From: a virus
Taxonomy: Duplodnaviria > Heunggongvirae > Uroviricota > Caudoviricetes
Reading direction: 5' to 3' (one strand)
DNA length: 46,724 nt
IMG/VR virus record: IMGVR_UViG_2579778634_000020
Positions 1 through 9,480 of this stretch are shown here, piece by piece. Under the pieces are notes generated by a model, which searched no databases, was not told the DNA's origin, and saw nothing but the letters and a program-made list of their open reading frames with translations. Position 1 is the first letter of the stretch; each line of letters opens with the position of its first letter. A program made the translations under genes and the position numbers.

Positions 1-7
1 CACTAAC

Positions 8-33
8 GCCCGCACATTGCTGCGGGCTTTTTG
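8..33 (+). terminator. Rho-independent terminator hairpin at the left edge of the window
   Basis: GCCCGCA (8-14), 6-nt loop, TGCGGGC (21-27), then TTTTT (28-32). Would terminate a plus-strand transcript entering from outside the window. Confidence 0.55.
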
Positions 34-330
34 ATTCATTTCGCAAATGTGCTGACATTTTCCCCTCTAATCCGTACCATACACGCCACAGTTTTTTATA
101 TCAGATTTCTTATGCTGGGCGTTCCGGCATGACGCATACTCTTCTGATGCCATATAACGAATTGAGTCGCTTTTAATGTCGCAAAATCAAGAAATTAGTA
201 AGAAAGAACAATACAACCTGAACAAGTAAGGGCAAAAATCACAACCATCTGACACATAAAGATTTTATTTATTTTTCAAAACGTTAAACAATATCAGCGA
301 CTACAATAACCTACGATAACCCACTCTTTT

Positions 331-377
331 TTTGCCCCATTTTTGCCCCTTTTGCAGCGTTTTGCCCCATTTTTGCC
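331..377. repeat. Direct repeat, 2 x TTTGCCCCATTTTTGCC, 30 bp apart
   Basis: Identical 17-mers at 331-347 and 361-377, with a partial third copy TTTTGCCCC at 341-349; adjacent direct repeats CTACAATAAC / CTACGATAAC at 301-320. Non-coding, just beyond the tail-fibre end of the prophage. Confidence 0.5.
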
Positions 378-502
378 ACCACAAAAAATCCTAAACCACA
401 CAAATCTAAAACCTACAAATTGCCCCCTTGGATACTTTTCAATAGAATCTGTTCCGGCTGGAAATCATTCAATACTCGCACTATCGAAAGTTATCCAGCC
501 AA

Positions 503-546
503 CCGCAGCACGTCCTGCATACGTCGTGTCTGCGGTTTTTCTTTTT
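503..546 (+). terminator. Plus-strand terminator-like hairpin at the prophage boundary
   Basis: CCGCAG (503-508) pairs with CTGCGG (530-535), inner CACG/CGTG pairing, followed by TTTTT CTTTTT (536-546). Oriented to stop transcription entering the prophage from the left. Confidence 0.45.
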
Positions 547-549
547 CGC

Positions 550-732
550 TTACATTGTGTCTGGTTCTTCCGGCCACTCAATATCAGGTGCAGTTGATGT
601 ATCAACACGGTTCAACAACACCCGATACTTTTTCCATGCGGCCAGTAACGCTTTCTCTTCCTCCGTTGCGATTTCCAGCTCAACAACAGTCTGAACGTAC
701 CGGGAACAGCCTCCTTCAGAGCTTGAAGGATA
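550..732 (-). pseudogene. 3' remnant of a tail fibre assembly (Tfa) gene, no start codon, in frame directly behind the stf stop
   Basis: Minus-strand frame after the stf TGA stop reads [60 protein letters not shown] then TAA at 550-552. The ...[33 protein letters not shown]... block matches the conserved C-terminus of lambda-type Tfa as I recall it. No ATG or GTG precedes it. Confidence 0.55.
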
Positions 733-3222
733 TCAATGTTCGCTTCCTGTTAACTGCCGGACAAGTGCAACCAGTTCGCTTACCTGATTTTCCAGAGTGC
801 TGATCCGGGTGTCTGCTGTTGCCAGATTTTCACGTAGCGTTGTGTTTTCCTCTTCCAGCGCGGTAACGCGATCATCTGTTTCACGGGCGACCTGAACAAG
901 TAAACCCGTCACGGCGGCGTAGTCAACATTAAGATAGCGCGTTTCTTCGCGTAGCTCGTTGCCGTCAACGGTCGGACCTTGTAACGCTTCACCGTAATGA
1001 GTAAACGATCCCACAGCTTCCGGTAGCGCCTCCATTACCTCCTGAGCGATAACGCCAGCGTAAGGTAGTCCGTTTTCCTTAAGGGTATAAGTGTACCCGT
1101 TCATTTTGCGGATGGCTTCAGTTGCATCACCTATAACCTGAATGTTGTCCTTCAGATCACGATCAGATGATTGGTTTATCGTTTCGCATGTAATGTGACC
1201 AGACGCTTTAAGATTTTTTACATCAAGTCTGTCGTTTGCAAAATTATATGAAATTGCGGTGCTGGTGCTTCCGGCATCATCATAATCGCTTTTATGAATA
1301 AACCAGTTTCCACCATTAGCAATGAGAGTATAAGTAGGCGTGTTAGCCGGGCGATCTGTTTCATTAAATCTTATTGCTGGGTTAGCGCTCCTTATTTGTA
1401 AAGGTTTTTCAACCGTGGATTTCAGTATCGCACTATCTACAATTAAATTACCTTCTGAGTTAATGTTTAGATATTTTGAAGCACCAGTTGAACCATCGTA
1501 TGTAAACCTTATTGTTAATTGACCTGGCTCATTTGATAAAGTCTCAACATACATATCAGCACCAAGACGCACAGTGCTGTCAGTTGCTAACAGTCTTGTA
1601 TGGAGAATACCACTAGATGTGTATGTATTGGTCGAATCACTATATCTATCAAGAAATAGACTGTTAAGTTGAGGGCTATTGCTCCTGCCTAATCCAAGAT
1701 TCGTTCTGGCACCATCAATAGTTGCCGCACCAGTACCTCCGGCCGCGATCGAAAGCGGAATCCATTCGCTATTCTCTGCATCGTAATAACCCCATGTTCC
1801 TGAATCGTAGATACTAAAAAATTTGCTTGCATTTTGACAATATACGCGTGTATTACCTGTTAGTTGAGTAAGCCTGTCCACTTCATCTTTTCTTGCGTGA
1901 CGCGTCCACTGCGGGCCTATTGTCGGATTCCAGCGATAAGTATAAAGCGAGCGCGTAGCCCATCCCTGAAATACACCTGTATACGCTGGTGTTCCATCTA
2001 CCTGACTAATAAACCCCGTAAGACTGCTTTCACCGGATGCAATCGATGGAAAGCCTTTTGCATTACTCATAATGCGCATAAATCCGATATACCCTGATGG
2101 GTTGCCGGAAATATCAGGACAATCACGCGGGGCTGAGCCAAGACCGATATTATCGCCAACAATTACTTGCGCCTGGTTGCGATAATTAAGTGCGTCCGCT
2201 GCAGATTTCGCCGCGTTTGTTTCACTGGATTTAGCATTAGTTTCGCTGGCTTTAGCGTTTGTTTCGCTGCTCTTTGCTGCTGCCTCGCTATTTTTCGCGT
2301 TGGTTTCTGATTTTTTGGCTGCTGTCGCGGAGTTTGCCGATGCAGTTTGTGAGGCCGCTGCCGCCTGTGCGCTGTTATCCGCATTCGTCTCAGACGTTTT
2401 TGCGGCCTTCGCGGAATTTCCTGCCGCCGTTGCCGAGGAAGCTGCACTACTGGCACTTGATGATGCGTTCGTTTCTGATGATTTCGCTGCCTCTTTTGAG
2501 GCCGCCGCATCCCGGGCTGAGGTGGCAGCTTCTGACGCTTTCGTGGTCGCGGTGGATGCAGAAGTGGCTGCAGATTTTTGTGACGCTGCAGCATTCGTTT
2601 CTGACGTTTTCGCCGCACCGGCACTGGTAGCCGCCGCGCTTTTTGAGGACTCTGCAGCGGCAGCACTTTTTGATGCTTCAGTAGCCTTTGTTGATGCCGT
2701 TCCTGCGCTGGAAGACGCTGACTGAGCCGACGTCGCGGCCTGCCCGGCTGATGTGCTGGCTGCACGTGCTGAGCCTGCAGCATCAGTCGCATGGGTTGCC
2801 GCCTCACGGGCTGATGTGCCGGCATCGCTGGCTGACTTCTTCGCGGCTGCCGTGTTCTGTTCCACTGCGGACGCGTTACGCGCCACCTCTTCCACCATCA
2901 GTTCAAAGCGGCGCAGTGCCTCCGGACGGGCATCATCCTCCGTCATGGCACCGAGAAAATCATTCAGTGTGCCCGGCTTTGAGTCCTCATATACGGTGAT
3001 AATCCCGGCGTGTGACGGCGGGAATCCCTCCACCAACAGACTGACGCTGTACTGACCATACTCGACGTCCATTGTGTAACGCCCGGCTTCATCCGGGTTT
3101 TCTGAGGCCACTGTGTTCACCACCACCGTGGTGCTGTTGCGCCTGGCCTTTAGCTGAATGGTGCAGTTTTGTATCGGCTTACCTGCGCCATCTTTCAGTA
3201 CACCTGAAATCCGTACTGCCAT
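733..3222 (-). CDS. stf: Side tail fibre protein: lambda Stf-like N-terminus, Ala/Ser/Thr-rich repeat shaft, C-terminal intramolecular-chaperone-like domain
   Basis: 829-aa ORF. N-terminus MAVRISGVLKDGAGKPIQNCTIQLKA...VYEDSKPGTLNDFLGAMTEDDARPEALRRFELMVEEVARNA is lambda Stf/StfR-like from memory. The C-terminal ~130 aa (NGYTYTLKENGLPYAGVIAQEV...LENQVSELVALVRQLTGSEH) resembles the self-cleaving chaperone domains (peptidase S74 type) of endosialidase and T5-type fibres. RBS GGGGGG upstream. Confidence 0.9.
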   Translation of the reverse strand: MAVRISGVLKDGAGKPIQNCTIQLKARRNSTTVVVNTVASENPDEAGRYTMDVEYGQYSVSLLVEGFPPSHAGIITVYEDSKPGTLNDFLGAMTEDDARPEALRRFELMVEEVARNASAVEQNTAAAKKSASDAGTSAREAATHATDAAGSARAASTSAGQAATSAQSASSSAGTASTKATEASKSAAAAESSKSAAATSAGAAKTSETNAAASQKSAATSASTATTKASEAATSARDAAASKEAAKSSETNASSSASSAASSATAAGNSAKAAKTSETNADNSAQAAAASQTASANSATAAKKSETNAKNSEAAAKSSETNAKASETNAKSSETNAAKSAADALNYRNQAQVIVGDNIGLGSAPRDCPDISGNPSGYIGFMRIMSNAKGFPSIASGESSLTGFISQVDGTPAYTGVFQGWATRSLYTYRWNPTIGPQWTRHARKDEVDRLTQLTGNTRVYCQNASKFFSIYDSGTWGYYDAENSEWIPLSIAAGGTGAATIDGARTNLGLGRSNSPQLNSLFLDRYSDSTNTYTSSGILHTRLLATDSTVRLGADMYVETLSNEPGQLTIRFTYDGSTGASKYLNINSEGNLIVDSAILKSTVEKPLQIRSANPAIRFNETDRPANTPTYTLIANGGNWFIHKSDYDDAGSTSTAISYNFANDRLDVKNLKASGHITCETINQSSDRDLKDNIQVIGDATEAIRKMNGYTYTLKENGLPYAGVIAQEVMEALPEAVGSFTHYGEALQGPTVDGNELREETRYLNVDYAAVTGLLVQVARETDDRVTALEEENTTLRENLATADTRISTLENQVSELVALVRQLTGSEH
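2200..2850. repeat. Low-complexity coding repeat region inside stf (K/A-SETNA and ASxxAxT units)
   Basis: The protein here is an almost pure A/S/T/K/E repeat (…KTSETNAAAS…KSSETNASSS…KTSETNADNS…KKSETNAKNS…KSSETNAKASETNAKSSETNAAKS…). The DNA is repetitive and GC-rich, which explains several spurious overlapping ORFs on both strands. Confidence 0.7.
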
Positions 3223-3231
3223 ATTCCCCCC

Positions 3232-3259
3232 ACAAAAAAGCCCGCCTGAACCGGCGGGC
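3232..3259 (-). terminator. Rho-independent terminator downstream of lom, abutting the stf ribosome binding site
   Basis: On the minus strand GCCCGCC (3259-3253), loop, GGCGGGC (3246-3240), then TTTTTTGTGGGGGG, immediately followed by the stf start at 3222. Confidence 0.6.
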
Positions 3260-3286
3260 TGTCATAACACTGTGTTACCTGGCTAA

Positions 3287-3886
3287 TCAGAATTTATAAC
3301 CGACACCAACGATGAAACTGTTGGTACGCCAGTCACCGCTGCCGGAGCCTTCATAAGCGACGTCAACGGCCACGGATTCGGTCGGGTTAAACTGCACGCC
3401 AGCTCCCCACGCCAGAGACGTGTTGCTGTGGCGACCGTCATCACTTCCGGTCAGCACATCGTGCGTTTTCCCCTTGTTGTCAGTTACGCGGATATAATCC
3501 CCGGAGAAAGTCGACACACGGCTGTAAGCCATACCCGCCATCGCATACGCGCTGAACCATTCATTCACGCGCACAGACGGCCCCGCCATCACGCTGAACC
3601 AGCGATTACGCACGGAATCCTCATGCCAGCGGGTATCGCTGTAATGCGTTTTTTGCTCATCTTCAGCGTTGGCATAACTGAATGACGTAATCAGCCCCAG
3701 CGTGTCCGTAAACTCATAACGGTATTTCACGTTAATCCCGTTCAGATTATCGCTGCCGGGAGCGTTCGTACGGGCATGAAGATACCCTGCGCTCAGTGTG
3801 GCCTGCTGCTCAGACGCCCATGCAGGCGCACCGGATACGGCCAGACAGATGGCTGCGGACAAAATGGCTGCACAAACTTTACGCAT
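3287..3886 (-). CDS. lom: Lom-like outer membrane beta-barrel protein (Ail/Lom/PagC family), prophage cargo
   Basis: 199 aa with an N-terminal signal peptide (MRKVCAAILSAAICLAVSGAPAWA). Lambda Lom signature motifs recalled: GINVKYRYE, VMAGP, AYAMAG, and the C-terminal VDVAYEGSGSGDWRTNSFIVGVGYKF. RBS GAGAGG. Flanked by terminators on both sides. Confidence 0.9.
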   Translation of the reverse strand: MRKVCAAILSAAICLAVSGAPAWASEQQATLSAGYLHARTNAPGSDNLNGINVKYRYEFTDTLGLITSFSYANAEDEQKTHYSDTRWHEDSVRNRWFSVMAGPSVRVNEWFSAYAMAGMAYSRVSTFSGDYIRVTDNKGKTHDVLTGSDDGRHSNTSLAWGAGVQFNPTESVAVDVAYEGSGSGDWRTNSFIVGVGYKF

Positions 3887-3953: not shown

Positions 3954-6900
3954 TCAGCTGATACTGATGCCTGCGGTGGCTTTCTTCATCACCACAACCA
4001 GCAAATCGCTGATACTTGCTGTGGGATACCAGTCATTTACCAGCCATGCTGACACCGAAAACTCCAGCGTCGTGTGACCGTGACCGGCAGGCATATCAAT
4101 AACGCCACTGTAAATCAGCGTATTATCCAGCGCGGTACGGTTATAAATTTCAGCACCGTTTTTCCGCACTATCAGACGGCATGAGGAGTAAATATCAGTA
4201 TGCTCTCTCTCATGTTTAGCGCCGCTGAATGCCACCGCCGGAATAACAATCTGCCGGTCAAACGGCTGATCGTCATAAATCCTGACGGTAATGGTCCCTG
4301 ATGGCCACCGCTCCGGTGCCCGGGAGTCCCGCGGGAAAGCCTTACCCACTGTTTTGACAATATCGCCTTCAATCTGGTTGGCTGACAGTTTCCCTTTAAT
4401 CTGACAGTTCTCATTTATCGTAACGTTGTTGAGCGTCCCGGCGTTCGCATTCACACTGCCACTGATATCCGCATTTTTAGCGGTCAGCTTTCCGTCCGGT
4501 GTCAGGGAAAAGGCCGGAGGATTGCCGCCGCTGGTAATGGTGGGGGCCGTCAGGCGCTTCAGGAACACTTCATTCATGAATATCTGATCACCCTGACCAA
4601 CAAACATCGGTTTTGTGTTGCCATTCGCAGGATTAATCATCGCAATCCTGTCTGCCGCCAGCAGCACCTGACTCTGCATGCCGTCAGGGGTGTTCTCAAT
4701 ACCGGCACCAATACCCGCGATATAAAGGCGTCCGTCCTGCATCTGCTGCAGCTTCACAGCCCACATGCTGTTCAGGTTATTATTTGTATCAACCTGAACC
4801 TTCTGTATCTGCTGAATTGCAGCACTCTGGTCTTCCAGTTTCTTATTGACGGTCTGCGTGATTTCATTGCTGACATCCGTAATGGACGTCCTGATTTCAG
4901 CCAGGTCAGGCGCAAGCTGACCGTTATCAATCTGCGTCCACAGCTCCTGAGCCAGATGGGTTTTCCCTATCTCGCCTTTGAAAAAATCCAGATAACCGGA
5001 TGCATCATCACTCGGCTGACCAACAGCCTCCACGAATGCCGATTTGCCAACGGTGTTCACACTGCGGATATAAAAGTAATAATCATGGCCCGGTTTGATA
5101 TTGATACTGGCGGCTATCCAGTACAGCGCCGTACCAAGATAGCGTGCTGTGGTTTCAACCTGCCTGATATCCGCAATCCGCTTTTCCGAGAACCAGAACT
5201 CAAACTGTACCGTCGGATCATAAACCGCAAGATGCGGCGTGGCGGTTATCTGAAAATAGCCCGGTGTCAGCTCAATCCGAGACGGCGCTGCCGGTGCGGC
5301 AATCCGGAACGATACCGATGCCGGATCGCCCTGCTGTCCCCACGCATTTACCGCCCGGACTGTCAGCCTGTAGTTCCCCAGCGCCAGTTGCGTGAAGCGG
5401 TATGTAGTTTCCGTCGTCCGGGCCGTGCTGACCAGCCGCTCACTGCCGTCATCCGCTGCCACGGTCAGGCGAAGCATAAAGCTCACCCCCTTCACCACCT
5501 TCGGCGTGTCCCAGCGCGCCAGCACCTGATATTCCCCGCTGTCTGCGGTGACTTCGGCAGTCAGGTGCTGCACCGCTGGCGGCGTGACACCATTCACCGT
5601 GCCGCTCTGGTCGCCGTCAAAGTGCGCCCCGTTATCCACGATGGCCTCTTTTTCCGGCACATGCTGCACGGCGGTGATGGCATACGTGCCGTCGTCGTTC
5701 TCACGGATACTCACGCAGCGAAACAGTCGCTGGCGCAGCGTCGGCAGCTTCAGCCCCCATACGCTGTATTCAGCAACACCGTCAGGAACACGGCTCACTT
5801 TTACCTTCACGCCGTCGGTGGCGGACTGGACCTCCACGCTGACCGGATTGCCATTTCCGTCAACCAGGCTTATCAGCGTGGTACCGGAGGATGGCAGCGT
5901 GATTTCACGGTCGAGCGTCAGCGTCCGGGTCTGGCTGTTCACCGCCAGCACGCGCCCACCGGTGCTGATACCCGCATAGTCATCATCACAGATTTCAATG
6001 ACATCGCCCGGCACATGGCGAAGCCCTTCTGCGCCCACGCTGAAGTCCACGGTCTGCGTTTCCAGCAGTTCTGTTTTAATCAGCCACAGCCCGGCGCGGT
6101 GTGCCTGCCCCCGGCTGGTACAGCCAAAGGCATCCATCTTCGTGACATTACGACCATAACGGGCAATGGCCTGCGTATCTTCAACAAGCTCTGTCGCCGT
6201 CTCCCAGCCGTTGTCCGGGTCAATCCAGTTCACCTCAACGGCATTATGGCGGACCTTCAGGGCGCTGAAACTGTAGCGGAACGGCGCGCCATCATCCGGC
6301 ATCACCACATTACTGCGGTTATAGGTCCACACCTTATCCGACGGCCGGTCCTGCACGAACGTCAGCGTCTGCCCGTTCCATACCGGCATACAGCGCATCG
6401 CCGAGCAGAAATCACTGAGCACATCCCACGCCTTACGCTGTGTGGTCAGCCAGGCATTACAGGTGATGCGCGGCTCCGTGCCGCCAAAGCCGTCCGGCAC
6501 CGACTGGTCGCAGTACTGGCCGATGACATACAGCGCCCATTTATCCACATCCGCCGCACCAAGACGTTTCCCCATGCCGTAGCGCGGGTGGGTCAGCATA
6601 TCCCACAGACACCATGCCATGTTGTTGCTGTATGCTGGCTTAAACGTTCCGTCCCAGATACCGCTGTATTGCCGCGTCTGCGGGTTATAGTTCGACGGCA
6701 CCTGCAGAATGCGCCCGCGAAGATGATAATTACGGCTCACCTGCTGGCTGCCGAACTGCTCCGAGTCCACCTGTACGCCGACCAGTGCCGTGTTCGGGTA
6801 GCACTGTTTCACATCGATGATTTCGGTGTATGACGACCAGAGCGTTTTGTTCTGCAGCTGGTCTGTGGTGCTGTCCGGCGTCATCCTGCGCATCCGGATG

Positions 6901-7433
6901 TTGAACGGGCGCGGCGGCAGGTTACCCACCACCACCGAGGCCAGATACTGCGAGGTGGTTTTGCCCTTAATGGTGATGTCTTTTTCCGTCACCCAGCCAC
7001 CGTTACGTTGTATCTGAACCAGCAGGCGGACTTCCGACGGATTCCGGTCCCCCTTTGAGGTGGTTTCCACCAGTGCCTGCACACCGAAGGTAAAGCGCAG
7101 TCGGTCGATGTTTGCCGACGTGATGGCGCGGGTGATCGGCGTGTCGTATTTCACTTCCGTACCCAGCACCGTCTCGGAGCCGGAGGATTCAAATCCCTCC
7201 GGCGGAGTCTGCTCCTGCTCACCAGCCCGGAACACCACCGTGACACCGGCGATGTTGGTATTCCCCTCACTGTCCAGCACCGGCGTACTGTTCAGCAGCA
7301 CGCTTTTTAATCCATCCACCGGACCTTCAATCGGCCCTTCACTGATGGCATCAATCACACTCAGCAACTGCGTGGATTTCAGGTTGTCCTTCGCTTCACG
7401 CGGGGTATGCCCCTTACTGCTGCCTTTACCCAT
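3954..7433 (-). CDS. J: Tail tip / central fibre host-specificity protein J
   Basis: 1159 aa, collinear with and similar to lambda J over the N-terminal and central parts (…[45 protein letters not shown]…). Sits downstream of I-K-L-M in the lambda order. Confidence 0.95.
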
Positions 7434-8781: not shown

Positions 8782-9480
8782 TTACTGCGAAAATTTGTTA
8801 ATGGAAAGGAAGCCGCCAAAGTTGCCGACGTTATTGCGGAACTTACATCCGCTCAGGCATTTGCTGCATTTATCCTTCGTGATATCGGACGTCGGCTGGT
8901 CATATTCATCCGCGACCGCCGGACCGTGATAACCGCACTCATCGCCGCGATAGGTCCAGGTGCAGGTGTTGGCCAGCATGATACGTCCCGGAAAAACGGC
9001 ACCATCCGTTTCAGTCGGAGTAGACAGCACAAAGGCCGCGCTAACCGCGTTCAGTTCGCTGCACTGCTCGATGCGCCAGCGGCTGATCACCTCCTGCTCC
9101 GGATCGGCTTCGCTGTTTCCGTTGATGAAGTTCACCGCATCCAGAAAACGGGCGTAGACCTTACGCCGGACCACTGTTCCGCCGACCAGACTCTGTAAAT
9201 CCTCCACCATCCCGGTGACCATGCCGTGCAGGTTAGATACTTTCAGTGTTGGCCTTGCACTGGCACCTTTGCCGTTCATCTCAAATCCACTCCCCTGAAT
9301 GGGATAGGCCTGATACTGCCGACTCTGCCAGGTGACAGACTCACCTTTTTCATTCTGCTCATTGCAGAAAAAGTAGCGATCCCCGCCTACCTCTGTCAGG
9401 TCGATTTCCCAGAGCACCACGCTGGCCGACTGCTCCGCCCGAATGCATTCATTCAGTGTTTCCTGTTGTATGTCCTGCAT
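8782..9480 (-). CDS. L: Minor tail protein L
   Basis: 232 aa, the same length as lambda L. Start overlaps the M stop as ATGA at 9480. Confidence 0.85.
   Translation of the reverse strand: MQDIQQETLNECIRAEQSASVVLWEIDLTEVGGDRYFFCNEQNEKGESVTWQSRQYQAYPIQGSGFEMNGKGASARPTLKVSNLHGMVTGMVEDLQSLVGGTVVRRKVYARFLDAVNFINGNSEADPEQEVISRWRIEQCSELNAVSAAFVLSTPTETDGAVFPGRIMLANTCTWTYRGDECGYHGPAVADEYDQPTSDITKDKCSKCLSGCKFRNNVGNFGGFLSINKFSQ

Follow-up and report, generated by a model that had tools for sequence, protein, structure and literature searches.

Two kinds of described tail fibre bear on the locus considered here: the Stf-Tfa pair of phage lambda, with its counterpart StfR-TfaR in the Rac prophage of Escherichia coli K-12, and the fibres of T5 and BF23. 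Tfa is described in PMC9608196 (in a passage citing North et al. 2019) as a protein whose N-terminal, fibre-binding domain varies and whose C-terminal domain is conserved. T5/BF23-type fibres have no accessory chaperone gene after them and carry a Peptidase_S74 domain at their extreme C-terminus; in T5 pb1, Ser1264 is the scissile nucleophile, activated by Lys1269, the S1264A change blocks cleavage, and a trimeric fold upstream gives the cleavage-licensing residues Asp1239, Arg1250 and Thr1263 (PMC4690869). Here we describe a mosaic side tail fibre gene, stf, which has features of both, in the 46,724-nucleotide viral DNA IMGVR_UViG_2579778634_000020 (“the window” in what follows, meaning this stretch at its full length): the gene begins like that of lambda, ends in an S74-type tip, and has the 3' end of a tfa gene lying in frame behind its stop codon.

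We consider it probable, with good confidence, that the locus represents the host-range end of a lambdoid prophage occupying the Rac site, in which a chimeric stf with an S74 tip has displaced tfa, whose leftover 3' end serves as an arm of homology. A lambda-type anchor and repeat shaft would have been joined to a distal module related to the T5 L-shaped fibre and ending in Peptidase_S74. On the model of T5 pb1 and the K1F endosialidase, the C-terminal 144 residues would template trimer folding, and Ser686, activated by Lys691, would cut the Ser685-Ser686 bond and release the chaperone, so that no separate Tfa would be needed. The 144 nt lying past a 36-nt spacer would then be the 3' end, now non-coding, of a tfa gene displaced by that module in one ancestral illegitimate join. 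With this remnant as right arm, and the conserved 5' end and shaft of stf as a probable left arm, the cassette could enter other lambdoid backbones by homologous recombination; here a secondary crossover would have occurred near position 636.

The stf gene occupies 733..3222 on the minus strand in the list of open reading frames (ATG start, 829 codons, TGA at 735..733), and its product matches PHROG tail fibre families. Its first 134 residues (2821..3222, minus) form a lambda-type anchor: they match PF08400 (phage_tail_N) at E 1.8e-70, residues 1-94 match the solved lambda tail fibre N-terminus 9e7m at E 2.4e-49, and the DNA of the region is 86% identical to lambda and 92% to K-12 stfR. The gene also has the place of a lambda-type stf, after J and lom. 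Behind the anchor comes an A/S/T-rich shaft (residues ~135-365; 2128..2820, minus) with 21/42-nt direct repeat families (D1, D3 and D4, at 2199-2620), so that both the lambda-type N-terminus and the repeat shaft proposed in the preliminary description are borne out. Similar repeats are carried by residues 18-401 of the BF23 L-shaped tail fibre, with 44% identity to Stf residues 200-581. The lambda-type, Tfa-dependent C-terminal receptor-binding part is absent, the C-terminus of this Stf being of the S74 type.

Comparison with lambda and with K-12 stfR-tfaR places the breakpoints of the mosaic at window positions 2381 and 695. DNA homology covers 3300..2381 (86% and 92%, respectively), i.e., the 3' flank of lom and stf codons 1 to ~281; it ends inside the shaft repeats and resumes only at 695, in tfa codon 147. 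The 3' part of stf and the first ~146 codons of tfa have therefore been replaced. The window thus shares with lambda and Rac the order J-lom-stf, and with K-12 Rac the chromosomal site (ttcC-uspF side); it differs from them in that the receptor-binding C-terminal half of Stf and Tfa residues 1-146 have been exchanged and in that folding is predicted to proceed via an in-cis chaperone rather than via Tfa.

The chaperone, or Peptidase_S74, domain takes up residues 686-829 (736..1167, minus). Residues 686-737 match PF13884 (Peptidase_S74, “chaperone of endosialidase”) at E 1.6e-14, with 54.3 bits against a family cut-off of 22. The predicted scissile Ser686 (codon 1167..1165, minus) and Lys691 (codon 1152..1150, minus) lie in the motif NQS/SDRDLKDNI (the stroke marking the predicted cut), with the same S+5=K spacing as Ser1264 and Lys1269 of T5 pb1; all 27 aligned homologues, the most distant of them 32% identical, keep the Ser, the Asp next to it and the Lys. 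The suggestion that stf ends in a domain resembling self-cleaving chaperones, with its catalytic Ser and Lys in place, therefore holds as an S74 sequence match. The sole solved structure reached by sequence is 6f45, which reads SSDRRIKKDI where the window has SSDRDLKDNI and which a profile of the 27 homologues matches at 2.7e-7. A phmmer search of PDB sequences with Stf reached neither the K1F endosialidase nor T5 pb1, whose chaperone is too diverged from that of the window to be detected in this way; the comparison with T5 rests for that reason on the Pfam family, the 6f45 alignment and the motif spacing, and it is by this analogy that Stf would be autoproteolytic. The chaperone of MagusPhagus is 81% identical (Stf residues 667-828 against 1005-1159). 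With the chaperone protein as query, the search for a donor gave a 67% relative in E. ruysiae and otherwise distant matches only. In the mEp010 tail fibre (L008, residue ~518) a Cys stands in place of the otherwise invariant nucleophilic Ser (NQSCDRDLK), which may represent either a thiol variant or an inactive site.

Between shaft and chaperone lies a distal region (residues 366-685; 1168..2127, minus; tblastn and blastp) that is a relative of the L-shaped, or lateral, tail fibres of T5-type phages. Searched against phages with tblastn, it is 45-52% identical to the fibres of Salmonella phage SP01, BF23 and the BASEL Tequintavirus phages and 51-56% identical to mEp010, mEp013 and MagusPhagus (48-56% for the mEp010/MagusPhagus type); similarity to BF23 LtfP spans its residues 18-589 and, weakly, 847-1050 (blastp), the distal tip not being covered. 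[quoted passage not shown] The Stf as a whole is not a fibre of the T5 pb1 type, which combines a T5-type N-terminal attachment with a bullet-shaped distal receptor-binding domain: its anchor is the lambda-type PF08400 domain, not the T5 collar-binding end, and the bullet or knob that T5 and the long-form relatives carry before the chaperone is missing. The S74 fibres of the mEp010/MagusPhagus type, from ~54-kb phages, are without a lambda-type N-terminus; they end in GSE(K/E)-TAA and a terminator, and they lack both spacer and remnant. Such a 3' end is what that of the donor would look like, and phages of this type are a plausible donor lineage.

Directly past the stf TGA the frame continues for exactly 60 sense codons (732..553) to a TAA (552..550). 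The preliminary description took this start-less, in-frame stretch in its entirety for the C-terminus of Tfa; the arrangement is as stated, but only codons 13-60 derive from tfa, and the first 12 are an unrelated spacer. The tfa part (553..696, minus; Tfa codons 147-194, without a start codon) was identified by PF02413 and by tblastn and blastp against lambda Tfa. Codons 13-57 match positions 86-130 of the 131 in the Caudo_TAP (PF02413) profile (E 1.7e-21, 77 bits) and align with lambda Tfa residues 147-191 of 194, 34 of the 45 being identical (76%), so that the alignment to Tfa C-termini, on which the claim depended, is indeed found. At the DNA level, identity over the last 124 nt of tfa (695..572) is 85% with lambda tfa (E 1e-36) and 84% with K-12 tfaR (E 9e-34). 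The first ATG, GTG or TTG in the remnant's frame is a GTG at codon 38, and no open reading frame of at least 40 residues is listed there. A complete Tfa has a start codon, a variable N-terminal and a conserved C-terminal domain; this is a fragment and not a gene. The 36-nt spacer (697..732, minus; codons 1-12) is specific to the lambdoid S74 cassette and shows no likeness either to tfa or to the sequence 3' of the mEp010/MagusPhagus fibres. A search for its donor gave 51 exact occurrences in IMG/VR, all 51 already joined to the remnant, and none in the GTDB species representatives. It contains a strong Shine-Dalgarno-like GAAGGAGG (717..710, minus), 15 nt past the stf stop and lacking a suitably spaced start codon; this may be the ribosome-binding site of a gene that once lay 3' of the fibre in the donor. 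A spacer hairpin at 729..713 folds no better than shuffled sequence (z -0.22), and we assign it no function.

The junction is not peculiar to this prophage. The same sequence, GSEH-TGA-YPSS(S/P)EGGCS(R/W)YVQT, is found in the window, in the compared loci L001 and L004, in the isolated phages mEp460, Ayreon and PhiR70_1, and in all 48 group-A loci of IMG/VR (a count that takes in only loci with enough downstream sequence). When the chaperone domain, spacer and remnant of the window (553-1194) were used as a probe, 801 of 5426 complete E. coli genomes (about 15%) covered at least 80% of it. A chance match or an assembly artefact is ruled out by the E-values given above and by the occurrence of the junction in hundreds of independent genomes. 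In phages of the mEp460/Ayreon/PhiR70_1 class, stop, spacer and remnant are joined identically, whereas the 3' ends of the remnant and the flanks differ by backbone. The shared junction marks a single ancestral join that was inherited by all lambdoid S74-type stf genes, and on the same grounds the scar was not formed in this prophage. The idea of a recombination scar, put forward in the preliminary description, is accordingly supported, but the event is older than the prophage and the remnant has since recombined again. In other strains the NCBI Prokaryotic Genome Annotation Pipeline (PGAP) names the fibre [quoted passage not shown] and the fragment “tail fiber assembly protein, incomplete, missing N-terminus”; the cases so annotated include dusA-site prophages, a Rac-site prophage with pinR, and a plasmid record in which the locus lies beside parB/sopA. 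No other Tfa-like sequence was found by tblastn in the 46.7-kb window, nor was any found in the whole mEp460 genome, which lends indirect support to the view that a separate Tfa is plausibly dispensable.

The remnant itself carries the marks of repeated exchange. Among 46 loci (window included) there are at least eight different remnant endings—among them ...WPEEPDTM, ...WPALP, ...WPAVPVME, ...WP(A/T)NPVRE, ...WPVAPIG, ...PKCNSLELITCE and ...PPPSKR—and 12 clusters of downstream flank, and the ending tracks the flank cluster. Two spacer markers, S..R and P..W, each occur with six of the same flank types; this pattern fails the four-gamete test and requires repeated recombination within about 150 nt. 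In the window one such event can be placed. Strain PEC178 carries an intact stf-tfa prophage whose Tfa (194 residues) ends in WPEEPDTM, and against this tfa and its flank the window is 78% identical over 695..636 and 98.5% identical over 635..500; the switch in identity puts the crossover at about 636, in the AWKKYRV core. The remnant thus recombined later with an intact tfa, 695..636 being linked to the cassette and 635..553 to the backbone. Remnants are 84-99% identical to intact tfa genes and stay similar enough to recombine because the C-terminal part of Tfa is conserved while the N-terminal part is variable. From these patterns we infer that a portable host-range cassette has its right-hand homology arm in the remnant, which persists in this role.

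The Stf of the window is a rare short form. Compared with long forms of 1090-1252 residues, ~262 codons are missing directly before the chaperone (junction at ~1199/1194); measured against L001, residues 682-942 are absent, and the join falls at a short repeated motif. All long forms and donor-type fibres have, before the scissile Ser, a knob with the motif WG...VFEVG...FYAQ...VNGA.NC.T.NQS, which a profile search likens to a T4 gp34 domain and its structures; mEp460, Ayreon and most prophage copies are of this kind, with an extra ~260-420 residues that include the gp34-like knob. In the window Stf a shaft-type domain (...NFANDRLDVKNLKASGHITCETINQS) abuts the chaperone directly. The Stf of phage PhiR70_1 is collinear with it over all 829 residues at 90% amino acid identity, though the residues at the join (window ~1168-1260, residues 655-685) differ markedly, the window reading GHITCETINQS and PhiR70_1 GNVTCVAVNHS.

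Several points weigh against the reading that we prefer, and some of them favor a different one: that the stf of the window is a defective deletion derivative, decaying prophage DNA that has lost its distal knob or receptor-binding domain with the ~262 codons and encodes a fibre unable to fold, cleave or bind. The knob before the cleavage site is present in all other relatives examined. Because cleavage in T5 is licensed by residues of the fold that precedes the site, processing of the short form could be impaired; no counterparts of Asp1239, Arg1250 and Thr1263 could be assigned in its sequence. Only three of the 5426 complete E. coli genomes contain the short-form junction, two of them with a split stf, and the prophage end that carries the gene here has also lost pinR-ynaE-ynaM. 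For the S74 fold, which combines an alpha/beta subdomain with a central trimeric coiled-coil helix, the AlphaFold2 model made from the 27-sequence alignment has a mean predicted local distance difference test score (pLDDT) of 57, as is to be expected of an intertwined trimer modelled as a monomer, although its long C-terminal helix (residues 194-251 of the modelled fragment) is confident, with pLDDT above 90; with this monomer as query, Foldseek returned no PDB match at E<=0.001, and 8ond, 3gw6 and 3gud were weak matches only. Lambda PaPa forms plaques without Stf, so that phages lacking an intact tfa are no proof that fibres are assembled, and the homology-arm role of the remnant is itself read from mosaic patterns. 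Set against decay, the 829-codon frame is intact and retains its catalytic Ser and Lys, and an isolated phage, PhiR70_1, has the same short architecture in an undisrupted gene. The ratio of non-synonymous to synonymous substitution rates (dN/dS) between the two is 0.28 for Stf as a whole and 0.09 for the chaperone domain, a sign that purifying selection has acted since they diverged. Taken together, the intact frame, the shared architecture and these ratios argue against simple decay, and we regard a defective stf as unlikely.

The order of events and the fate of the remnant also admit other explanations. The S74 tip could have been gained upstream of an intact tfa that, having become useless, then lost its 5' part by deletion: present sequences record no order of events, and the 36-nt spacer could be the residue of a second rearrangement. 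However, the intermediate, an S74-ended stf followed by an intact tfa, was not seen among the 48 IMG/VR loci, the six compared loci (the window being one of them) or the annotated E. coli examples, and a single shared junction excludes independent deletions; one two-step history in the common ancestor seems to us doubtful. A further proposal, that ribosomes translate the remnant, whether by reading through the stf UGA or by starting in an unconventional way, and that it aids trimerisation of the fibre, would draw on the Tfa C-terminal domain, for which a role in trimerisation is proposed in PMC9608196. It is favored by the Shine-Dalgarno-like motif in the spacer and by a remnant that is in frame and free of stops in 45 of the 46 loci despite about 10-20% nucleotide divergence. 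The shared frame, however, goes back to one junction and is a single inherited 1-in-3 coincidence, not replicated evidence; as a sign of selection the in-frame arrangement is for this reason unsupported. Variation in the remnant mirrors that of intact tfa genes, and so was acquired by recombination and says nothing about constraint. The 12 spacer codons show only non-synonymous variants (S/P, R/W, G/S). The one frameshifted remnant among the 46 (IMGVR_UViG_2718218453_000005, ending ...EVWKSIGCC and a stop) is as expected of non-coding DNA. Conventional initiation has no start codon available before codon 38, and anything added by read-through would be attached to the part lost after cleavage. 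Translation of the remnant therefore seems to us highly improbable, and we give scarcely any credence to its more specific version, in which some ribosomes read through the UGA and append the Tfa segment to the chaperone, producing a hybrid of cis- and trans-type chaperone that would trimerise the knob-less fibre: one ancestral junction, with gene conversion from intact tfa, explains an in-frame, stop-free remnant more simply. We thus retain the reading of a displaced, non-coding tfa end that has been re-used in recombination.

The surroundings of the fibre locus place the prophage in the chromosome. Two window segments, 541..499 and 395..1, correspond by blastn to the right-hand end of K-12 Rac as far as uspF, and the prophage therefore occupies the Rac site; the outer segment (1..395, without strand) comprises this right end and the ttcC-uspF side flank, and it matches positions 8790-9185 of the K-12 Rac comparison sequence (L006) at 94.7% (blastn and K-12 annotation). 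Some 1.7 kb with pinR-ynaE-ynaM (6990-8725 of L006, after tfaR in K-12) is absent between the tfa remnant and the right end. These three genes are still present in L004, a Rac-site relative with the same kind of S74 stf. At 501..546 (plus) a hairpin (fold -19 kcal/mol, z -4.4) followed by TTTTTCTTTTT resembles a terminator directed toward the fibre genes. It is 98% identical to the flank of the intact PEC178 tfa, i.e., it was inherited with the tfa 3' flank, and has 91% identity to a 44-nt piece near the K-12 Rac right end; read on the stf strand, the hairpin has no U-run. Two perfect 18-nt direct repeats (TTTTGCCCCATTTTTGCC), 30 nt apart, lie at 330-377 in the region homologous to the Rac right end. 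On the other side of stf, its upstream neighbour lom (3287..3886, minus; list of open reading frames and annotation of homologous loci) is separated from it by a terminator-like hairpin (3260..3239, minus; terminator scan), and J occupies 7433..3954 in the same list.

Two further loci show the cassette in other surroundings. In IMGVR_UViG_2908572912_000001 the spacer and remnant are fused to an internal part of lom (...GSDDLNGINVKY), the whole of stf having been deleted while the remnant survives. E. coli RL465 “plasmid III” (NZ_LT906558.1), a 61.5-kb linear record, has J-lom-stf and the remnant beside the partition genes parB/sopA, an arrangement that points to a lambdoid phage-plasmid bearing this scar. 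For 221 nt around the short-form junction, its stf and that of the window are 100% identical.

S74-ended fibres, tail-fibre mosaicism and pseudogene remnants are all known kinds, and the scar is already flagged in database annotation. In the literature searched we found no description of a tfa remnant behind an S74-type Stf, and the genome announcement for Ayreon makes no mention of tail fibres. Current understanding is not overturned by this locus: the scar is real but ordinary, and what is added here is the mapping of its breakpoints, the single origin of its junction and the re-use of the remnant as a recombination site. For annotation, the 60 in-frame codons should be treated as a pseudogene fragment and not as part of stf. 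When lambda Stf chimeras are engineered, co-expression of a chaperone should be unnecessary for tips that end in S74, and the short form, a minimal fusion of shaft to chaperone, would be useful for learning what the chaperone requires upstream. For the lambdoid phages themselves, the locus offers a clean and datable case of host-range module exchange, in which a tip carrying its own chaperone would have removed the need for Tfa and the leftover 3' end of tfa appears to let the cassette hop among at least 12 backbones.

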